This document shows, piece after piece, positions 2,563 through 57,476 of a DNA stretch of 64,000 nt. Positions within the stretch are counted from its first letter, which is position 1; each line of letters starts with the position of its first letter. A program made the position numbers and the translations under genes. Source of the DNA: Candidatus Amesbacteria bacterium (GTDB lineage: Bacteria > Patescibacteriota > Microgenomatia > CAZETR01 > Amesbacteraceae); assembly GCA_963736875.1 (NCBI GenBank), contig CAVTQH010000002.1, positions 199,927 to 263,926 of the forward strand. Direction: 5' to 3'. Under the pieces are notes generated by a model. It saw only the letters and a list, made by a program, of their open reading frames with translations. It had not been told where the DNA came from and made no database searches.

Positions 2563-2828
2563 CCTGGAGGTAGGCGGCTACTCCGACGTCACGTCGGAGA
2601 GGAAAGTCCAGACAACTGAAGGCAGGGTGCCCCGTGTAAGCGGGGACGCGCAAGCGCTAGTTTAGAGCAACAGTGACGAACCGAGGTCATGCTCGGGTGA
2701 AACGGGCAATCCTCCCCGTTGCAACCTCCGATTTGGCCGATAAAGACGGAAGCCTTCCCGAGGCCTAAAGCTTGAGGGCATCAGACAGATTGCCGCTAAA
2801 ACAGAATCTGGCTTACTCACCTCCAGGC
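2563..2828 (+). ncRNA. rnpB: RNase P RNA, bacterial type A, reduced size (~265 nt)
   Basis: Universal motifs are present: GGAAAGUCC (gagaggaaagtccagac), AAGGCAGGGUGCC, GCGCAAGCG and the 3' ACAGAAUCUGGCUUA. P1 is formed by cctggaggt (2563-2571) pairing with acctccagg (2819-2827). Confidence 0.7.
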
Positions 2829-46750: not shown

Positions 46751-47341
46751 TTAACGGTTTGCCAGCCACAGGGCTAACTGCCGGTAATGAATGCTGTCTT
46801 TATTTTGTCTTGCGTCCCTCTCAGCCCGCCAGGTTCGGGAAAACACGCACAGGGGTTTGTTTTCACCCGGAGGAATCAGTATCCGGTCAAATTCGCCGGC
46901 AACTTCATCCATCGGATCCCAGATTTTATCAGCCAGGGTAAATCCGCTGTCAACATAGTTAAATATTTTCGGCTCCTTCATTCCCGGCTCGAGATAAGCC
47001 AGGGACTGACGGAATTCTGCGTTTCTGTTAGTTTCTCCTGTCATCAATTTCAATATTCCGGCTATACCGATGGTATCCGTTACAAAATGAATAAAAGTTT
47101 TGGGAAATCCACCCAAAGCCTCAATAAATATTCCGGAGTCTTCCACCATCAGAGGGGCATTTACCATTTTTATCGCCTGGAGGGCTTTTTCCGCAACGAT
47201 TTTTTCCGGATCTTCCTCCCTTGGCTCAATTATCTCCGCTTCTTTTTGGATAACCTTAATCCCGGATCCGGCAAGGGCTGTCTGCGCATGCAAAATCTTG
47301 GTCTGGTTACCGGTTATAAAATATATGACTTTCTCCATCAC
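46751..47341 (-). CDS. rdgB: non-canonical purine NTP pyrophosphatase (Ham1/RdgB/ITPase family)
   Basis: An FITGNQTK N-terminus and the Ham1 fold length. Confidence 0.6.
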   Translation of the reverse strand: MMEKVIYFITGNQTKILHAQTALAGSGIKVIQKEAEIIEPREEDPEKIVAEKALQAIKMVNAPLMVEDSGIFIEALGGFPKTFIHFVTDTIGIAGILKLMTGETNRNAEFRQSLAYLEPGMKEPKIFNYVDSGFTLADKIWDPMDEVAGEFDRILIPPGENKPLCVFSRTWRAERDARQNKDSIHYRQLALWLANR

Positions 47342-47438: not shown

Positions 47439-47948
47439 TCAAGACCTGTTTCCCTTTTGAATTTTTAATTCTATTGCTCTTTGGATTATTCTTTCTCCGA
47501 TTTCTCCCCAATCAAAATATTCCCGGTAATCTTTTGGATTGATAAGTTTAATCTCCGTAATACTTCCGTCTGGATCTTTTTCGAACTTTCCCAGAGGTTC
47601 GACAATAGCGCAAAACCGAAGTTGATAAACAGTATTATCATCGGGAGTTGTAACTTCTTGTACTCCTACAGGAAAGGCTTTTAAAACTTTCATATTAGTT
47701 TCTTCCTGAACTTCTCTGATTAAGGTTTGCTCAAAGGTTTCCCCTTTTTCTATGTGTCCTCCGACCAGACCCCAACCTTTGCCGTCTTCCCCGCTTTCCC
47801 CCCTTACTATTACCAGGTTGTCATCACAGAAACAAACTCCGTAAACCTGCTGGCATTTATCGTGGGGTAGAGAAGAAAAAGAATCCAAATCATAGTATTT
47901 CACTTTTACAACATACCCTTTCCAAATAAATGACGAATTTATTGTCAT
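47439..47948 (-). CDS. NUDIX hydrolase
   Basis: Nudix box GGHIEKGETFEQTLIREVQEETNM. Confidence 0.7.
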   Translation of the reverse strand: MTINSSFIWKGYVVKVKYYDLDSFSSLPHDKCQQVYGVCFCDDNLVIVRGESGEDGKGWGLVGGHIEKGETFEQTLIREVQEETNMKVLKAFPVGVQEVTTPDDNTVYQLRFCAIVEPLGKFEKDPDGSITEIKLINPKDYREYFDWGEIGERIIQRAIELKIQKGNRS

Positions 47949-49488: not shown

Positions 49489-49629
49489 GGGTCAAGTTTA
49501 TCACCGCCCATCTCCCCTTCCTGCAGCAGATAGAAAAATCTCAGGAAGTCAATCTCAAGATCAATAATCTAATCTAAAACTTTCTATATGGTTTATATAC
49601 TCGGAAGGAAACTTAAATTTATTAGCAGC

Positions 49630-50009
49630 TTATATTATTCTTTCCAAATAGTCTGACTGATCAAACTTACCTGCGGTTAGATTGTCATTATCGATATAAA
49701 CCCATGATTTAATATAAATACCTTCAAACCTTACATTTTCTTCTACTCTATTGTAAGTCTTTGGGATTTTATTATAACCTTCACTCTTATCTAATGCGTT
49801 CAAAGCAACATCATTAATATCAAATAATAGTCCATATACCTTTGGAACACGAATTTGTAGTATCAATAGCTATATTAGCCTTACAGCGGTTATTTTAAAA
49901 AAAATTCCCAACCTTCTAGTATAGCTACTCCTAATAACCCGAAGTTATCTACACATCTAACCTTCATTTGATTTAAATCCATGTTTGAACCATAAGCAAA
50001 GTATTTCAT
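49630..50009 (-). pseudogene. AIG2/GGACT (gamma-glutamyl cyclotransferase-like) family gene, frameshifted at an A8/T8 homopolymer (~49888-49895)
   Basis: An N-terminal piece MKYFAYGSNMDLNQMKVRC... (start ~50009) and a C-terminal piece ...VYGLLFDINDVALNALDKSEGYNKIPKTYNRVEEN... (49630-49866) lie in different frames. Confidence 0.45.
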
Positions 50010-50096
50010 TTTCTGCCTACAAAATAACCCAGACGAAGTAGGAGGTAAAGGTATTTGTAGCTTTCATACTTGCTGGGCGTGAAACAATTGAAGAAG

Positions 50097-51818
50097 TTAT
50101 GTTAGTAGATTTTTTAGATTCATAACATACTGATCTTCAAATGAATAACTATACTTTTTAGCCAAACTCCAGAATGAATCTTTAATATCTTGCTCATTGC
50201 GAATCAATTTTCTAGCTTCTGATAAGGAGGTAATAATATTACCCCTTGCCCTTGATGCCACCCTACTCAAATTAGTTGGTATCGTTGTTCTTAGTTTCCA
50301 GCTTTTAACGTCCCATATTAAATTAATACATGAATCAAGGTGGGTTTCATATTCACCAAACAGATCCTCGACCGCAAATCCATCAGGTAGAGTAATTATA
50401 TAAAGGTTACTTTTGGAATTAGGTATTAAATATTTTTTAAATCCATTGCTTAATTGAGGATCACCAACGATATATTTACTATACACATCTTTTCCTTTAT
50501 CGCTATCAACAATAAAGTATGCCTTCTTTTGTACAAGATCGGGTATATTTAATAAAACATCTATTGTTCTAGTTATTTGAGCTACACCTTCAAAACAGTT
50601 GGTAATTTTAATACCAACCTGTTCGTAAACATCCTTTGTTTCAGCTCTTTTATCTTCAATAAATGTTAGTAATTTGTCCTGAGAGGTATAGAAATATACA
50701 TAAAAGTTAGAATCTCCCATTAATTTCCCAATTTCAACTACTTCCTCCTTTGTCCATAATTTCATCTTTTTGTTTTTAACAACCACATGCTCTTTTAATA
50801 GACACCACTCTATGTTATCACCCCCTAAATTACTTGAGGCTAATATTATTGGGGAGTGTGTAGAAACGACCATTTGGATGTTCTTCAGCCAAGCTTGTGA
50901 ATTAAGTTCTTGAGAGAACTTGACCATTAAATCACCATGGAGAAAGGATTCTGGTTCTTCCAACAACCATATTGGGTGATATTCTCCTCTGTGAAGTGAC
51001 CTATCACTATCAAGTAAATAATGTGTTTGATATAAGATGGTTGATTGAGCTCCCGTTCCATGTGAGGTAAGCTCAATTTCTGGAAGTGTTTGTTGCCCTT
51101 TAAAACTTATATCAGAGATTTCAACAATTTCTTTAATATTTTTAGGAAGGTCAAGAGCTGCTTCACTTCCAGGCCACATAGTTTGCAGGCTTTTAGTTAA
51201 TGAGGATGAAAGGTACGATCTGGCTTGTCTACGAAATTCCTCCCACTTTTTTTGTAACTCATTAATACCTATAGATAAATTTGGGTTTCTACCCCAATTC
51301 GCTAATAACCTTTGTCTTAATTTTTCTTGCGCATTCTTAAGTAGATCTCTACCTTCTTGGGGGTGAATGTATGTCACCCTTACGCTCATTAACAACTTTT
51401 TAACATCTGGGTCAATATCGTCGAATGAATCATAAACATAACCTAAAAAGGTATATGAAAACGAAACTTTCCTTGATGATGGTAAAAATGTGATTATTTT
51501 CTTAATATCCGCCTTCTTATTCTTGAACAACCTTATCAGGCGATTTCTTAAAACATTACTAGTTAATTCTTCTAAATTAAATGTTATTGAGATCTCAGCA
51601 TGGTTATACCCTGCCTTTTTTGCTAGGTAGGTGGTTCTGTTTAGAAAAGTTTCATCTTGATATAACGAATCGTTAAAAAAGAAGTTTAAAGCATTTAAAA
51701 TCGCCGTTTTCCCTGCATTATTTATCCCTATTAAATAAGTTCCTTGGGATAAATTTATTTGAGTCTTTGACCGAAAGCACTTAAAGTTTTCTATTTCAAG
51801 CGAATTAATTAAACTCAT
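50097..51818 (-). CDS. OLD-family-like ABC-type ATPase with C-terminal TOPRIM/DUF4435-like domain
   Basis: Walker A GINNAGKTAILNAL, signature-like SHGTGAQS, Walker B IWLLEEPESFLH, H-loop VVSTHSP. The C-terminus has FEG...(Glu) and FIVDSDKGKD (DxD) as in TOPRIM. Confidence 0.55.
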   Translation of the reverse strand: MSLINSLEIENFKCFRSKTQINLSQGTYLIGINNAGKTAILNALNFFFNDSLYQDETFLNRTTYLAKKAGYNHAEISITFNLEELTSNVLRNRLIRLFKNKKADIKKIITFLPSSRKVSFSYTFLGYVYDSFDDIDPDVKKLLMSVRVTYIHPQEGRDLLKNAQEKLRQRLLANWGRNPNLSIGINELQKKWEEFRRQARSYLSSSLTKSLQTMWPGSEAALDLPKNIKEIVEISDISFKGQQTLPEIELTSHGTGAQSTILYQTHYLLDSDRSLHRGEYHPIWLLEEPESFLHGDLMVKFSQELNSQAWLKNIQMVVSTHSPIILASSNLGGDNIEWCLLKEHVVVKNKKMKLWTKEEVVEIGKLMGDSNFYVYFYTSQDKLLTFIEDKRAETKDVYEQVGIKITNCFEGVAQITRTIDVLLNIPDLVQKKAYFIVDSDKGKDVYSKYIVGDPQLSNGFKKYLIPNSKSNLYIITLPDGFAVEDLFGEYETHLDSCINLIWDVKSWKLRTTIPTNLSRVASRARGNIITSLSEARKLIRNEQDIKDSFWSLAKKYSYSFEDQYVMNLKNLLT

Positions 51819-51870
51819 ATGTTTTTTAAATAGCGGTTATGGCCTTAAAATAGCCTTAAATTTCTTAATG

Positions 51871-52500
51871 TCAAGCTATTCTAGTACCAGTATTTACTCC
51901 GCCGTGGTGGGAGCAGGTACCAGAGCGATGTTGACTAAAACTATACGTACCATCACCACACTTTGCAGTTGCCCCCACCGGAGGAGAATTGTAATAAGTA
52001 GGTGACTGTACTTTGTTTCCGTCTACATTTATATAGTAATCTGGGCTAGATTGAGTTTGGGGAGCTATTGTTGGAACTGGTTTAAATGTTGGTCTTGGAG
52101 TCGGCTTAAGAGTGGGGGTCAATGTTGGTGTTGGAGTTGGAGCTACAGTTAGGACCGGGGAAATAATTTCACTGGCTGGACTCAAGATTTCTACTCCCCC
52201 AATTTGTCCCTCAACTTTCGGCGACTCTGTTTTTATTTGGATGTTTGATCGTGGAACAGTGGAAACGTCTACTGGGATTTTTGGACTTGACCAAAACGAT
52301 GTTGAAATCAACGCCAATAAACACAAAGCCGCGATCGACCCAATTTTTACTTTATGCTTCCAGTTATTTCTGAAAATGACATAAGCAAAGAAAAAAGGCC
52401 AGAAAATGATTGCCAAAAGTAGTTTCCACCAAGTTTTATACCAGGGTCGTGGGGCAGACACGTCCGATTGGACGGTCATTAGCCTGGATGTTAGTTCCAA
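51871..52500 (-). CDS. membrane protein with PT-rich linker and C-terminal DUF3761-like Cys domain
   Basis: TM; (PT)n linker; YINVDGNKV...ATAKCGDGTYSFSQHRSGTCSHHGGV. Confidence 0.4.
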   Translation of the reverse strand: MELTSRLMTVQSDVSAPRPWYKTWWKLLLAIIFWPFFFAYVIFRNNWKHKVKIGSIAALCLLALISTSFWSSPKIPVDVSTVPRSNIQIKTESPKVEGQIGGVEILSPASEIISPVLTVAPTPTPTLTPTLKPTPRPTFKPVPTIAPQTQSSPDYYINVDGNKVQSPTYYNSPPVGATAKCGDGTYSFSQHRSGTCSHHGGVNTGTRIA

Positions 52501-52554
52501 GATGACCTATAGTCAAGTTTTACCGGGCGTGATCACATTATTTTAGACGACTTT

Positions 52555-53010
52555 TCAAGGTTGTGTTTCATACATAGCAACCTCACATTTTTTAGCAGTA
52601 AGACTTGTGCCACCTCTTGAATATGGTAAATCATGATCGAAATGTAGGTTCTGATTTGACTTACATATTACACATTTTCCTTGATCTCTTTTCCAAACCT
52701 CCTTTTTTACTTCCGATGGGATTAGTCTAGTATGAGAAAGTTGTACTTTCTGAATATCTCCCGAGATAGATTGGTTACCTGATAGTTTTAAAATAAAACG
52801 GAATACATTTCTATTACTATTGTTTTTCACTGTGTAATCAATAAGTTCGAAGTATCCCTTTGATGACCAAACTCCATTCATTATTTTTTCATAAACTTTC
52901 ACAATCTCAGGGTTGGCATCTTTTTCCTTGTATCCTTTTACTGCACGAATAAATAATCCATTCTGTGTTAATTTCCCTGAAGGTAATATTTCTGGCTGAT
53001 CGTCTAATTT
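52555..53010 (-). CDS. HNH endonuclease (start codon uncertain)
   Basis: CVICKSNQNLHFDHDLPYSRGG is an HNH motif. The frame is open back to ~53010 with no ATG. The upstream 64-aa ORF 53032-53226 is in the same frame, separated by TAA and TGA. Confidence 0.55.
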   Translation of the reverse strand, partial: KLDDQPEILPSGKLTQNGLFIRAVKGYKEKDANPEIVKVYEKIMNGVWSSKGYFELIDYTVKNNSNRNVFRFILKLSGNQSISGDIQKVQLSHTRLIPSEVKKEVWKRDQGKCVICKSNQNLHFDHDLPYSRGGTSLTAKKCEVAMYETQP

Positions 53011-53428
53011 TGGATTATGTCATATGCTTTTTTAGATATATCGTGTCCTTCGTATTCTATCGGTAATTCCATCGGAATATATTTTATCTTTATATGGGGC
53101 ATTTGATCTTTGGGACATCAAAATTAAAGAGTAACGAGGATTTAGTCGGTAATTCATTCCTCGTTGAAGAGTTTGAACATTTTCTAAATCACACATTTCC
53201 CTGTAAGAAAATATTTGATCAAGCACAGGTCAATTCCTTTTTAAACATAATTTGTATTTATTGGCTATTTAATTTACACTCTCCCCAAAAGAAAGCAATT
53301 GATTTGGGTCGAAAATATTATTTCCTCTTATTGATTCGTCTATTTCTCTTATTTTTTTATAACCTAAGAATTTAATAGCCTCGTTTAATTTTAAACACGG
53401 ATTGGAAAACGTTGGCCTTTTTAGCTCA

Positions 53429-54382
53429 TCAAACACTTTCCTTTTTCTTTCTTCGGAAGAGACAATAAAAAGTGGGTAACTTGAATTTGGGTTTCCTGAC
53501 TCTTAAATCTGATAACCTCAATATTCCTGAGTAAATCGAAGTCGTATGTTCAATTTCGAAGGCTGATTTAATTGAATATGGTCCATATTTCCATACAACA
53601 TCAATATTTTTAATTGTCGGAGGTACATCAAGTGATTCATGAAATTCTGATAATACGTGTTCTTTAAATCTATTACCTTGAAAGGACTTTCCTTGGTCGT
53701 TAGAGGGAACCCATATGTCAAATTTTGCCAATTCACCTAGCCTTATTAACCTCCATTGTATCTCAACATGTTCAGTAGTCGATTGTTCAATGTGTTCGTC
53801 AAGTTCTGTTATTGCCTTTGTTTGTTGTGGTATTTCTCTGATTTTTTCTCCCTTTTCTATTGTCTTTAGTGTACCTAATAAATCCCCATATCTGCTTAAG
53901 AAATATTTAGTTGCATCTTCATTTATCATTGTTAATCCTTGTGGAGAATAATTCTCCTTATATCCAAATAGTGGATTAATTTTTGATAGCGGTACCGAGA
54001 CTCTCTCTTCGTTAAGAATAAAATATATTAATTCCCAAGTTTCGCCCTCTGGAGTTTCATGCCAAAAATACTTAGCTAATTCTTTGCTTCTGACTTTAGC
54101 CGCTATCTCGCCAACAAATCTTATGTAACCATTATTATAAATAAGTACTACGTCTCCAGACTCCATTTTTTCCCATCGAGTTTCATTTAAAGGTCCTGGA
54201 ACAGCTCCCCAGACAATAAAGGGTAAGTTATGGTAGATATTTTCTAGATTACTGATCTCTTTTTGTGGAAGATAATTTCTTATTTCGTTAAGATTTCTTT
54301 TGTTTTGAATTGTATCCTCAAAATGACGTTGAGCCTCGTAGTTACCACCAGCAACTACAATAAATACTTTTCTAATCTTCAT
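53429..54382 (-). CDS. EVE/PUA-like domain fused to a restriction-endonuclease-like (PD-(D/E)XK-like) C-terminal domain
   Basis: The N-terminus reads PFIVWGAVPG...MESGDVVLIYNNGYIRFVGEIAAKV, EVE-like. The C-terminus reads ...IDVVWKYGP...FEIEHTTS.... A 2-nt gap separates it from the MazG-like gene. Confidence 0.35.
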   Translation of the reverse strand: MKIRKVFIVVAGGNYEAQRHFEDTIQNKRNLNEIRNYLPQKEISNLENIYHNLPFIVWGAVPGPLNETRWEKMESGDVVLIYNNGYIRFVGEIAAKVRSKELAKYFWHETPEGETWELIYFILNEERVSVPLSKINPLFGYKENYSPQGLTMINEDATKYFLSRYGDLLGTLKTIEKGEKIREIPQQTKAITELDEHIEQSTTEHVEIQWRLIRLGELAKFDIWVPSNDQGKSFQGNRFKEHVLSEFHESLDVPPTIKNIDVVWKYGPYSIKSAFEIEHTTSIYSGILRLSDLRVRKPKFKLPTFYCLFRRKKKESV

Positions 54383-54384
54383 AT

Positions 54385-54855
54385 TTAAAGCTGATTATAC
54401 TTTGTGTGTTTACCCTTTGTCTTTTCAATAGGGTACCTTAGATTGTTCTTTGCTATTTTCTTATCAAGAGCTGCCAATATATCAATATTTAAATCATTAC
54501 TCATAAGTAATACCCAATACAACACGTCAGCTAATTCTTCGCCTATTTCATTTTTATGATTCTTAACATGTTCTTCGATCTCTTCTTTGTTCTTCCATTG
54601 GAAGTGTTCCATTACTTCTGCTGCTTCTAGAATCAGAGATAGAGATGCATCTTTAGGATTATGAAACTGCTTCCAATCCCTAGCATTCCGGAAATTGATA
54701 ATTCTCTGAGTTAAACTTTTTATTGTTTTCACTTTTAGCCTGATTTTACTCCTTTTTTCCCTTTTTTCGCGGATTTGATAGGATATAGATAGTGAAATTA
54801 ATAAGCGTACGGAAATTGGGATTTTATAAAAGCAAGTTCTTTGTCTTTTTCGCAT
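54385..54855 (-). CDS. MazG-like nucleotide pyrophosphohydrolase (all-alpha NTP-PPase, YpjD-like)
   Basis: RDWKQFHNPKDASLSLILEAAEVMEHFQWK...IGEELADVLYWVLLMSNDLNIDILAAL. The real start is probably ~54760. Confidence 0.55.
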   Translation of the reverse strand: MRKRQRTCFYKIPISVRLLISLSISYQIREKREKRSKIRLKVKTIKSLTQRIINFRNARDWKQFHNPKDASLSLILEAAEVMEHFQWKNKEEIEEHVKNHKNEIGEELADVLYWVLLMSNDLNIDILAALDKKIAKNNLRYPIEKTKGKHTKYNQL

Positions 54856-55436
54856 CTGCTTCTATTTTGGTAGTGCTGTTGTTTGTATTAAATAATTTAT
54901 TTATTTCCCTGGCTGGAACCTTACTTTTCATAGTACTTTTTAAAAAATACAAACCCTATGAAAAAGGTTTGTTGGGTGAAACGGACATCAGCGATGAATT
55001 GAGGAAACTTCCACCTGAATACCATTTCTTTTCCGATATAGAAACTGACCGGAGTAAGGCCAATATTGATAAAGTGCTTATCGGACCAACCGGGGTATGG
55101 GTAATAGAAGTTAAAAATATGCAGGGTAAGTTTACTTTTGATGGCCAGAAACTGTTAAAAAATGGTTATCCGATGCCAAAAGATATCCTTAGCCAAACCT
55201 GGAAGGAATCCTATACCATCCGCGATTTAATCAAAGAAAGATTAAATTTTGGTGTTACTGTCCAGCCAGTACTGGTTTTTTCCAGTTCCAAGGCATACTT
55301 TAAGTTTGGAATGAATAAGGTGAAGGGGATTTATATTATCGGGAAGAAATGGTTGAACCAGTTAGTGAATGAAAAAACAACCCAACCTCTAGACCCCCAA
55401 ACCATCGATAAGATTTCAGCTATCTTCAAATTTTAA
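54792..55436 (+). CDS. NERD-domain (nuclease-related domain) membrane protein
   Basis: Two N-terminal TMs, then GLLGETDISDELRKLPPEYHFFSDIE...IDKVLIGPTGVWVIEVKN. Confidence 0.55.
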   Translation: MKLISVRKLGFYKSKFFVFFASASILVVLLFVLNNLFISLAGTLLFIVLFKKYKPYEKGLLGETDISDELRKLPPEYHFFSDIETDRSKANIDKVLIGPTGVWVIEVKNMQGKFTFDGQKLLKNGYPMPKDILSQTWKESYTIRDLIKERLNFGVTVQPVLVFSSSKAYFKFGMNKVKGIYIIGKKWLNQLVNEKTTQPLDPQTIDKISAIFKF

Positions 55437-55444
55437 ACCTCAAA

Positions 55445-55496
55445 GCGTGAGCACGGATTTATGCCTGCCGAATTACAGTACTCTGTCATCCCGAAT
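55445..55496. repeat. copy 2 of the ~52-bp intergenic repeat
   Basis: gcgtgagcacggatttatgcctgccgaattacagtactctgtcatcccgaat: 30/30 then 18/22 identity with copy 3. It is followed by a CCGG-rich hairpin and a T-run. Confidence 0.6.
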
Positions 55497-55535
55497 CTGC
55501 GCGGTCCGGGCCGGTCCGGTGCCGGGAGTACTGAT

Positions 55536-55886
55536 TTATTTTTTGTCCAAAAAAGCAGCCATTGCGGAAACCACCCGCGCTTGCCAATCCAGAATATGGG
55601 CTTCCTGTATCTGCTCCCCTTCGGTGGTAATTGAAGTAACTGATTTTTTAACTACTTCCGCTTCCCAGTCCACCTCCCGCAAATCGTCCATTGGTCCTCT
55701 TGACGGGGGCATTTCCGTATTGCGCTTCTGGAACATGTACAGATTCGGGCATTCAACTTCATAAGTCTTGGCTGTTTTACCGTCGTCCGCAAATTGTTCC
55801 CTGGCCATTTCCGCCAATTTTCCCAAGGCAAAGCATTTACGCTCTATTCCTACCACCGGGCACCCTTCACATCTTACTACCGGCAT
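55536..55886 (-). CDS. small Cys-containing protein, 116 aa (CEGCP...C...C)
   Basis: ATG preceded by GAGGAG. It lies 9 nt downstream of the 58-aa gene. Confidence 0.35.
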   Translation of the reverse strand: MPVVRCEGCPVVGIERKCFALGKLAEMAREQFADDGKTAKTYEVECPNLYMFQKRNTEMPPSRGPMDDLREVDWEAEVVKKSVTSITTEGEQIQEAHILDWQARVVSAMAAFLDKK

Positions 55887-55895
55887 ATCCGCATT

Positions 55896-56072
55896 TTACT
55901 CCTCGTTAAATCTTGGTGTGGAAGGGCACCGGCCGGCGGATCCGCAGGTACCGTCATTTTTTACCAAAGTGCAGGCGGGATCAACCGGGCACTTCGGCTT
56001 TAACTCTTTAACTTTATCTGCATCTTTTCCGCTTGGTTGGATTTGTGGCTTGGTTTCGGTCTTTACTGCCAT
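55896..56072 (-). CDS. Cys-rich small protein, 58 aa (MAVKTETKPQIQPSGKDADKVKELKPKCPVDPACTLVKNDGTCGSAGRCPSTPRFNEE)
   Basis: ATG to TAA, six Cys in the C-terminal 30 aa. Not in the ORF track. Confidence 0.3.
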   Translation of the reverse strand: MAVKTETKPQIQPSGKDADKVKELKPKCPVDPACTLVKNDGTCGSAGRCPSTPRFNEE

Positions 56073-56135
56073 TTGCGGATTATAGGATAAGTTGTTCGTG
56101 ATGTAAACAGTTTTGCGTCTCCGGGGGTGCGGGGT

Positions 56136-57476
56136 TTAATTTACGGGGATGGTGGAAGGAATGTAATAGACATTGCCCGTCAGCTGTCCGTTTAAGACGT
56201 TGGCCGATGAATCGGTGGTGTCGGAATCAAAATGATAAAGCATCATGGTATCGGCATCGGGGGTAAACGGCAGTTTGGAAGGAGTGAAATTTCCGGTGTA
56301 TCTGGCGGTATCGGAAACCCTCACTTCATCGATGACTCCCTGGAAGAAATCATAAAACGGCAGGTTTTTATCAAACAACCCGGCTCCGATGTGCAGACTC
56401 CGGCCGTTATTGCAGACAATCATGCCTACGTTGTAGGAATTTAATTTGACTCCGTTTTCGTAAATATGCAGGTTGCCGTTTTGTAAAACCCCGGCGACAT
56501 GTTTCCAGGAATTAAACTCTCCCGGGGTAACTGTGATGTAATTGCAGATGTTCCAGGGGTTCCAGTTACAGTTACCGGAATAAACCACCGTTTGGTTGCA
56601 GCCGTTGTTCGAACTTTGGACATCAAAGTAATAAATATACGAAACATTTGCTCCGTTGGGTATGGCATCCATTGATAGCCGGTAAGTATTATCGACAATG
56701 CGGTATCCGTAGCCGGCTTTTGCCGGGGCAATCGGCTTTATCCAGGCCTCAACCGTAACATTATCAGTCGGCAGATTCATCTTGGAAGAATACGGCACTT
56801 CCATATACTGCAGCACCGGGGTGTAAGACGGCGGGTTAAGGCCGGCAACTTTGCCTCCGAAAACCGCGGCTTCGCCCCAGGGGTAAGCCGGGGTGGGAGT
56901 GGGTGCCGGAGTGGAAGTGGGTGCCGGAGTCGGGGTGGGAACAATTAAACAGTCTTCTGATTTCATTAAAGGCCGGCACCAATAGCAGTCAGGGGAAATA
57001 ATATGGGTACCGGGACAGCCGGGATCATTGACTCCGAATTTATTGTATCTGGTTTCGGCATCAAGATTTTCGGTCTTGGATTTGGGGTTATAGCACAGAA
57101 CCGCCGAATTACCGCACCTGGTAATATGGATTTCTTTAAGTTCCGGCGTGGAAAGATATATTTCTTCAAATTTCGGGTCCTTGATCAGTTCGTGGATGCA
57201 GTCGGGAATATCCGTCAGAGGAACACCTGCGTTTAATTCATTCCGGCAGTCGGGATTCACATCCCAGGGGAGTTTTTTATGACTGCTGTAATACCCGATA
57301 GCGGAATTAATCACATCCTTGATTACGACTTTGGAACTGGCATCCGCGGCCTTGGAAATCTGTTCGGCGGGATTAACGGCAAAAAGAACCGTGGACAAAA
57401 TGACTGTCAGAATACCCATGACCATTAAAAGCTCAATCAGGGTAAAACCGGTGGCAATTTTATACCTCGTAACCAC
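56136..57476 (-). CDS. type IV pilin/pseudopilin-like protein with large lectin/LamG-like C-terminal domain
   Basis: A class III signal with prepilin cleavage/methylation motif G|FTLIELLMV, a (TP)n linker, and a Cys-rich jelly-roll-like C-terminus. Confidence 0.6.
   Translation of the reverse strand: MVTRYKIATGFTLIELLMVMGILTVILSTVLFAVNPAEQISKAADASSKVVIKDVINSAIGYYSSHKKLPWDVNPDCRNELNAGVPLTDIPDCIHELIKDPKFEEIYLSTPELKEIHITRCGNSAVLCYNPKSKTENLDAETRYNKFGVNDPGCPGTHIISPDCYWCRPLMKSEDCLIVPTPTPAPTSTPAPTPTPAYPWGEAAVFGGKVAGLNPPSYTPVLQYMEVPYSSKMNLPTDNVTVEAWIKPIAPAKAGYGYRIVDNTYRLSMDAIPNGANVSYIYYFDVQSSNNGCNQTVVYSGNCNWNPWNICNYITVTPGEFNSWKHVAGVLQNGNLHIYENGVKLNSYNVGMIVCNNGRSLHIGAGLFDKNLPFYDFFQGVIDEVRVSDTARYTGNFTPSKLPFTPDADTMMLYHFDSDTTDSSANVLNGQLTGNVYYIPSTIPVN

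Follow-up and report, generated by a model that had tools for sequence, protein, structure and literature searches.

A cassette of three genes on the minus strand of a 64,000-nucleotide stretch of contig CAVTQH010000002.1 (Candidatus Amesbacteria bacterium, assembly GCA_963736875.1; the whole stretch is referred to as the window) was analyzed computationally. The cassette comprises a gene for a MazG-type nucleoside triphosphate (NTP) pyrophosphatase, a frameshifted gene predicted to encode a modified-base reader domain fused to a nuclease (reader-nuclease), and the pseudogene of an SRA-HNH enzyme (Table 1). In an earlier note on this DNA, a MazG-like open reading frame (ORF) and a 317-aa ORF following after 2 nt had been proposed as a two-gene module. 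The spacing agrees with the coordinates, the upstream ORF (54385-54855) ending with the stop codon TAA at 54387-54385 and the next ATG occupying 54382-54380, but the module has to be extended by the decayed SRA-HNH gene located directly downstream. The cassette was acquired horizontally, as deduced from its location within an island of approximately 5.8 kb featuring a guanine-cytosine (GC) content of 34% inside a genome of 46-48% GC. Protein family scans detected neither a methyltransferase nor an integrase among the window neighbours of the cassette. A scan for promoters and terminators gave no signal exceeding that expected from shuffled sequence and detected no terminator separating the MazG gene from the reader-nuclease gene.

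Table 1. Features of the cassette and of the surrounding low-GC island (window positions).
Feature	Position	Strand	Basis
MazG NTP pyrophosphatase gene, DCTPP1/RS21-C6-like, 115 aa	54385-54732	-	PF12643, PDB matches, invariant acidic residues
Reader-nuclease gene, ~370 aa reconstructed, 1-nt frameshift	53269-54382	-	homolog alignment, tblastn
317-aa ORF, front portion of the reader-nuclease gene	53429-54382	-	
YTH/EVE-like (PUA-superfamily) modified-base reader domain, predicted, ~aa 1-180	53843-54382	-	
NmeDI-type PD-(D/E)XK cleavage domain, C-terminal	53269-53797	-	
Frameshift site AGGAAACCC (coding strand)	53489-53497	-	three-frame translation, homolog comparison, tblastn
SRA-HNH (TagI-like) pseudogene	52536-53226	-	in-frame stops near 53035 and 53023, frameshift near 52592
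Low-GC island with cassette, OLD/GajA-like ATPase and NERD protein	49600-55400	.	GC 0.344 vs flanks 0.46-0.48
OLD/GajA-like ATPase, 573 aa	50097-51818	-	AAA_15, OLD and GajA matches
NERD-domain protein, hydrophobic N-terminus	54792-55436	+	NERD PF08378

The product of the upstream ORF matched the Pfam MazG-like family PF12643 with 57.5 bits (cutoff 27; E=1.6e-15), which verifies its earlier description as a MazG-like NTP pyrophosphohydrolase. In a sequence search against the PDB, 4qgp, a pyrophosphatase of archaeal origin (E=6.5e-17), and mouse RS21-C6/dCTP pyrophosphatase 1 (DCTPP1, E=7.5e-15) ranked best. Homologs of this MazG consist of 115-118 aa and start a few residues ahead of a conserved LxxxIxxFRxxRxWKQFH segment. 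A GTG codon at 54732 yields a protein of 115 aa, and the identical product is present in a public protein collection. Since the 41-residue extension up to the ATG at 54855 is of low complexity and overlaps the divergently oriented NERD gene, GTG 54732 and not ATG 54855 is most likely the start codon. The metal-binding residues E32, E35, E62 and D65 (ExxE...ExxD) are invariant in the MazG alignment (A3), the window copy included. As judged from its sequence, the gene looks intact, and it is the only one of the three cassette genes that looks functional. None of the PADLOC models matched the window MazG. Besides sequence similarity and the same metal-binding acidic residues, the protein shares a C-terminal KY(T/N)xL tail with DCTPP1/RS21-C6; in contrast to the latter, the window-type MazG is a prokaryotic protein of 115 aa encoded by the first gene of nuclease operons. 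Mammalian DCTPP1 hydrolyses methylated or otherwise 5-modified dCTPs and thereby prevents their misincorporation into DNA (PMC13291643, PMC4491611).

For the second gene, an EVE/PUA-like N-terminus and a PD-(D/E)XK-like C-terminus had been suggested. The motifs quoted in favour of the former (FIVWG, MESGDVVLIY and FVGEIAAKV) are present, and their columns are invariant or nearly so across 19 homologs. A PUA-superfamily (EVE/YTH/SRA) fold was found for the N-terminal domain; when the full-length homolog P0013 was predicted with AlphaFold2 (mean predicted local distance difference test, pLDDT, 69), the N-terminal 180 residues were modelled reasonably. Furthermore, the family profile picked up the N-terminal domain of TgMcrB (TgMcrB-N) by sequence (E=0.042). 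With regard to a possible aromatic cage for base binding, the tryptophans W59 and W108 are invariant and W71 and W117 nearly so among 100 divergent relatives, and in a sequence alignment W59 and W108 coincide with tryptophans of TgMcrB-N. Pfam and NCBIfam profiles revealed neither EVE nor any other significant family in the 317-aa ORF, and a PDB sequence search with this single protein returned nothing. The suggestion consequently holds at the level of the PUA superfamily, whereas the nearest relative belongs to the YTH-like branch and not to EVE proper.

The reader domain was surveyed by scanning all of 1.84 billion representative proteins with HMMER for the N-terminal 185 residues, which yielded 1462 proteins. 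Among 100 of these, fusions to HNH_2 (15), HNH (14) and McrB-type AAA_5 (9) were found, and further partners were NucS_C, NOV_C, YhcG_C and STAND NTPases. Judged by these architectures, the reader domain appears to behave as a swappable specificity module, a pattern typical of modification-dependent restriction.

The C-terminal half carries the Pfam domain NmeDI_C (PF27126; precomputed assignments) in all listed homologs and matched the PADLOC model REase_II (PDLC03534) with E-values of 1.7e-5 to 1.6e-7, so that the PD-(D/E)XK-like character proposed before was recovered by both resources. The candidate catalytic residues D263, E278 and E280 (IDVVW...EIE) are invariant across the family and present in the window copy. 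Of the 351 positions of the REase_II profile, only 175-308 were matched, corresponding to its C-terminal half, and the N-terminal half of the profile remained unmatched. In the genome_contigs collection, representing 185,579 bacterial and archaeal species by one genome each, 293 loci were located with the nuclease as starting point, of which approximately 50 full-length ones were examined. Approximately 45 of these 50 loci lack a methyltransferase, and Dcm and Vsr genes adjoin the nuclease gene in five. Absence of a methyltransferase is the pattern expected of modification-dependent enzymes (PMC6765204). The second gene is predicted to encode a single-chain modification-dependent, type IV-like endonuclease. 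A separate family of approximately 414 aa (L060-L085; plasmid hits H5-H10) has NmeDI_C alone in common with the reader-nuclease; its genes are surrounded by those for resistance to copper and heavy metals (multicopper oxidase, P-type ATPase), both in Bacteroidota and on megaplasmids of Cupriavidus (C. metallidurans CH34 and relatives).

The 317-aa ORF had been taken as the complete second protein. Three-frame translation, tblastn and the lengths of homologs revealed instead that it represents the front portion of a frameshift-truncated gene. In a collection of 5.8 billion proteins, 881 relatives were found; the best full-length ones, originating from Patescibacteria, Omnitrophota and Acidobacteriota, are 62-73% identical and comprise 363-383 aa (approximately 372). 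Behind the sequence ...YSGILRLSDLR, homologs continue with xxPNSNYPLFIVAxxxRKxKVFxELxRPTF... and read LR[AV]xNPNS across the frameshift site. In the window, the matching continuation lies in another frame, ending at the stop codon 53269-53271, and tblastn with a homolog placed residues 2-316 in one frame and residues 299-371 in the other. One surplus base resides within AGGAAACCC, and dropping one A restores LRVRNPNSSYPLFIV. The repaired gene specifies a 370-aa product aligning end to end with the family.

As a result of the frameshift, the last 73 codons of the window copy are out of frame; the candidate catalytic IDVVW...EIE segment is located upstream and remains in frame. The lost segment, with the PLFIV strand and the RPTF motif, carries the invariant or near-invariant residues P300, P305, F307 and R324-P-T-F327. 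The 317-aa protein is therefore unlikely to be active, and the module is probably defunct in this genome. Programmed frameshifting was rejected, as no homolog has the same shift and other members of the family are broken elsewhere. Sequencing error as the only cause of the frameshift is less likely, given substitution-type stops in the neighbouring SRA-HNH gene and intact long ORFs in the remaining window. Because stop codons arise by substitution, the damage looks like real decay and not like indel-type sequencing noise. Reader-NmeDI_C genes were also found to be truncated or split in approximately eight further genomes (L023, L030, L050, L051, L052, L056, L057, L065), and the differing positions of these breaks imply that inactivation is recurrent in the family.

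The third gene is a broken copy of a family of 232-aa proteins with 6426 relatives, in which an SRA fold is followed by an HNH motif at the C-terminus. By means of tblastn, two in-frame stops and one frameshift were localized in the window copy. A PDB sequence search with an SRA-HNH homolog was uninformative, a fold search being needed in this case. The third gene is a TagI-like SRA-HNH enzyme gene, now a pseudogene. Enzymes of this class act on DNA containing 5-methylcytosine (5mC) or 5-hydroxymethylcytosine (5hmC) (PMC6765204).

In order to evaluate whether the pairing of MazG and reader-nuclease exceeds chance, it was followed from both of its members. Starting from the nuclease, MazG of the same clade was found upstream in 4 of the approximately 50 family loci, namely directly upstream with a 4-nt overlap or a short gap in L031, L037 and L042, and at a distance of 2.3 kb in L025. 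The four nucleases represent separate branches and are 50-60% identical to the window protein; moreover, L037 displays the same gene order as the window, i.e., MazG, reader-nuclease and SRA-HNH. For a family occurring about once per genome, the number of chance occurrences at the position directly upstream is well under 0.1 in 50 loci according to a rough estimate, which is not a computed statistic. Neighbourhoods of reader-NmeDI_C genes differ strongly from locus to locus, and the majority of copies are solitary; MazG is optional for this family. No relatives of the NmeDI_C reader-nuclease family were found in the viral collection IMG/VR.

Starting from MazG, the 80 closest relatives in metagenomes were sampled, of which 70 offered at least 300 nt of downstream sequence. 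In 57 of the 70 loci, a same-strand downstream gene starts within -4 to +30 nt. Reader-nucleases follow MazG in 11 of the 70 loci. In 38 loci, the downstream partner is a DUF2075/SLFN-g3 helicase protein whose N-terminus carries a nuclease-like or GIY-YIG domain. Further partners were a second PUA-like reader/nuclease family, which hhalign relates to the reader domain with a probability of 91% (6 loci), reader-nucleases of the YTH-like kind featuring HNH, NOV_C or NmeDI_C (5 loci), RadC (2 loci) and Vsr (2 loci). The SRA-HNH gene occurs in 9 of the 80 metagenome loci, mostly just downstream of the helicase gene. Furthermore, the MazG clade directly precedes genes for a C5-cytosine methyltransferase (Dcm) and Vsr in L156 (3989-6140) and L025 (3249-5959), and for Vsr alone in L125 (2-913) and L143 (61-966). 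In addition, members of the clade are located next to a Nudix gene (L147) and to a gene resembling uracil phosphoribosyltransferase (L116; as judged from the sequence). The helicase partners (set L088-L167; e.g., L093:4330-6195, L118:4338-6647 and L094:677-2812) comprise 620-770 aa, often carry a C-terminal LexA-type Peptidase_S24 domain and match the PADLOC models PDC-S41, AbiO and Nhi over part of their length.

Within IMG/VR, 39 of 43 MazG loci continue with a reader protein of approximately 325 aa featuring an HNH-type C-terminus; these loci fall into 4 clusters at 50% and 11 clusters at 90% identity. On a Bacillus mycoides plasmid (p37; WP_215556760.1 and WP_215556761.1), a "nucleotide pyrophosphohydrolase" and an "HNH endonuclease" are annotated consecutively with a gap of 32 nt, and the same MazG/reader-nuclease pair is annotated on a Nocardiopsis plasmid with a 4-nt overlap. 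The protein P0206 (L086:3926-4813, complete, 295 aa), detected on two contigs, represents a fusion of a MazG-like domain (11-121) to a YTH-like reader (128-284) without a nuclease. Escherichia coli genomes contained no match to the Bacillus-type MazG/reader pair, and a phage GenBank collection yielded a single distant archaeal provirus match only. According to the earlier note, its proposal would fall if the pair was never found in other genomes; the pair, however, recurs in distant lineages, on Bacillus and Nocardiopsis plasmids and in IMG/VR. The association of this MazG clade with PUA-like reader-nucleases is real and recurrent, the nuclease domain being exchangeable, and the MazG clade serves other nucleases too.

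PUA-superfamily readers fused to nucleases constitute modification-dependent restriction enzymes (PMC6765204, PMC7897488), and from its predicted domains the reader-nuclease would belong to these known PUA-reader type IV enzymes. The class includes the EVE-HNH enzymes of the VcaM4I/TspA15I group and the SRA-nucleases MspJI, LpnPI and TagI. In contrast to these, the window reader resembles the YTH-like N-domain of TgMcrB more closely than canonical EVE domains, the nuclease is of the NmeDI-type PD-(D/E)XK and not of the HNH or Mrr-like type, and an upstream MazG partner is unmentioned in the papers checked on this class. Moreover, the reader is fused straight to the nuclease, whereas the reader of TgMcrB is carried by a GTPase motor recruiting McrC. 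That this archaeal YTH-like domain has homologs fused to McrB GTPases or to PD-(D/E)XK nucleases was mentioned before by Bell et al. 2020 (PMC7641849).

The restriction enzyme R.NmeDI of Neisseria meningitidis has the C-terminal NmeDI_C domain in common with the window protein. It cleaves DNA on either side of its site at a constant distance (PMC2095814), which fits a separate, detachable cleavage domain. R.NmeDI differs in recognizing unmodified RCCGGY and in possessing a cognate C5-methyltransferase, whereas in the reader-NmeDI_C family the N-terminal half is unmatched by the REase_II profile, and a methyltransferase is usually absent. With nothing but the cleavage domain in common, a different recognition half and no accompanying methyltransferase in the window, the second gene is not a full member of the NmeDI type II family.

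Regarding the combination with a nucleotide-hydrolysing enzyme, a PUA-like domain sensing free m6-dAMP was described to activate an effector depleting deoxynucleoside triphosphates (dNTPs) in the PUA-Calcineurin-HAD system, for which rare MazG variants are mentioned (bioRxiv 10.64898/2026.01.15.699771). A PUA-like modified-nucleotide sensor is combined with a nucleotide-hydrolysing enzyme in that system as well; in the window, by contrast, reader and DNA nuclease form a single protein, and the small MazG protein is encoded separately. HAD phosphatase or calcineurin partners were found neither among the window neighbours nor among the 25 top-ranking fusion families of the reader domain. Genes of the MutT/Nudix type are mentioned beside SauUSI-type type IV enzymes in Bell et al. 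2020 (PMC7641849). Here, too, a nucleotide pyrophosphohydrolase gene adjoins that of a modification-dependent restriction enzyme; the differences are the Nudix superfamily as opposed to the all-alpha MazG and another nuclease architecture. MutT beside SauUSI homologs and the PUA-MazG-HAD variants are the nearest precedents of the MazG pairing. No published description of the MazG/reader-nuclease pairing was found in the papers checked on the enzyme class or in full-text searches, which is in line with the earlier view that it may be undescribed; literature coverage was partial, and an earlier account is possible.

Based on these results, we consider it probable, with somewhat better than even confidence, that the locus represents a three-gene cassette directed against DNA with modified bases, acquired by horizontal transfer and decayed in part, in which MazG acts as remover of modified dNTPs. 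As to what MazG and the reader domain act on and how self-protection would work, we infer the following scheme. MazG and nuclease would be transcribed and translated as a unit. The YTH/EVE-like reader domain would flip out and bind a modified base, and the NmeDI-type PD-(D/E)XK domain would cut DNA near the bound base, while the TagI-type SRA-HNH enzyme would read 5mC or 5hmC. MazG would hydrolyse (d)NTPs to monophosphates and most likely clear modified dNTPs, e.g., 5-methyl-dCTP or 5-hydroxymethyl-dCTP, from the pool. In this way, modified bases originating from degraded foreign DNA would be kept out of the host chromosome, which might otherwise become a target of the cell's own nuclease, and phages building modified DNA would be starved of precursors. 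The location of MazG beside Dcm and Vsr or Vsr alone and the recurrence of SRA-HNH in the cassette are circumstantial for a cytosine-methylation theme.

Several observations weigh against this interpretation. TgMcrB-N, the closest structural relative of the reader, is reported to prefer N6-methyladenine over 5mC DNA (PMC7544203), a preference that poorly fits a dCTP-type pyrophosphatase. Approximately 90% of the reader-NmeDI_C loci are without MazG, implying that the nuclease does not require it. The most frequent partner of MazG, the DUF2075/SLFN-type helicase-nuclease (38/70), is without known modification dependence. Dcm and Vsr beside the nuclease in five family loci might reflect a restriction-modification pair of the conventional kind. 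A few Bacillus lineages account for most of the IMG/VR loci, the AlphaFold2 models are moderate (pLDDT 69 and 64.5) with a poorly modelled catalytic core of the nuclease, and the broken window copy is uninformative on activity in this organism.

The principal alternative to MazG as a sanitiser of the nucleotide pool is that MazG itself serves as the effector. By analogy to PUA-Calcineurin-HAD, the PUA-like reader would sense a modified nucleotide or base and MazG would deplete dNTPs, thereby aborting phage replication. The natural MazG-reader fusion P0206, devoid of a nuclease domain, argues for this possibility, as does the above-mentioned preprint, in which PUA-like sensors bind m6-dAMP and rare variants possess a MazG-like domain as effector. 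It is nevertheless considered unlikely: the window-type reader is fused to the nuclease and not to MazG, no HAD or calcineurin Pfam match is located nearby, the 115-aa MazG is without a regulatory domain, and the commonest MazG partners are nucleases without a detected reader domain.

It is likewise improbable that MazG and the nucleases are independent genes which merely travel together in densely packed defence islands. Such packing would be consistent with the reader-nuclease mostly standing alone in highly variable neighbourhoods, with the many different partners of MazG, and with the presence of the unrelated defence-type genes OLD and NERD in the window island. Gene order and strand are nevertheless constant, MazG coming first with spacings of -4 to +7 nt in 57 of 70 loci, and the pairing recurs across phyla and among proteins approximately 50% identical. 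Moreover, the link between MazG and reader is retained when the nuclease domain is swapped, and a MazG-reader gene fusion exists.

A further-reaching interpretation, which we regard as a rather doubtful one, is that the DCTPP1-like MazG is an integral part of widespread systems watching the nucleotide pool. MazG would turn phage-made or salvaged modified dNTPs into the corresponding deoxynucleoside monophosphates (dNMPs) and keep the host chromosome free of marks, and the modified dNMPs could be the ligand by which the PUA-like reader licenses the nuclease. One MazG would then be combined with interchangeable nucleases, i.e., YTH-like HNH, NOV_C or NmeDI_C fusions, the second PUA-like/nuclease family, DUF2075 helicase-nucleases and SRA-HNH enzymes.

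Finally, that the second gene encodes a conventional NmeDI-like type II enzyme cutting unmodified DNA, its methyltransferase being located elsewhere or lost and the frameshift following from this loss, is very improbable: the NmeDI_C domain, Dcm and Vsr genes adjoining the nuclease gene in L025, L034, L036, L038 and L044 as in the NmeDI system (PMC2095814), and the selection for nuclease inactivation that loss of a methyltransferase would exert are outweighed by the lack of a methyltransferase in approximately 45 of 50 loci, the YTH/EVE-like N-terminal reader, which McrB GTPases and type IV enzymes of the HNH class carry as well, and the restriction of the REase_II match to the C-terminal half.

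Modification-dependent nucleases are treated as stand-alone enzymes, and little attention is paid to how a cell salvaging modified nucleotides avoids marking its own chromosome. If MazG acts as remover of modified dNTPs in the cassette, a translationally coupled DCTPP1-like pyrophosphatase ahead of unrelated nuclease types would constitute a new accessory principle and provide a natural function for prokaryotic DCTPP1 homologs. The locus points to a conserved pyrophosphatase, apparently undescribed, that accompanies modification-dependent nucleases as well as other nucleases of defence. Since the pair is present on plasmids of cultivable Bacillus and of actinomycetes, the idea is directly testable. 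For the genome studied here the significance is modest, the locus being a decaying, horizontally acquired defence island of little consequence for the host.

Regarding the surroundings of the cassette, the OLD/GajA-like ATPase encoded in the low-GC island has no evident partner gene. A scan of 55300-56250 against Rfam revealed no RNA family, and a tRNA scan of the whole window revealed none. The archaeal-type RNase P RNA model RF00373 matched the window at 2563-2827 (+) with 88.8 bits (gathering score 84). The window otherwise looks bacterial, featuring a pilin-like GFTLIELL N-terminus at 56136-57476 and closest protein homologs from Patescibacteria. In normal-GC DNA, a Ham1/ITPase-like gene (46751-47341, -) adjoins a NUDIX gene (47439-47948, -). 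Approximately 2-3 kb lie between this pair and the left end of the island, and approximately 7 kb between the pair and the MazG gene. The presence of these two housekeeping, nucleotide-sanitising genes implies that the host possesses house-cleaning NTPases besides the MazG of the island.

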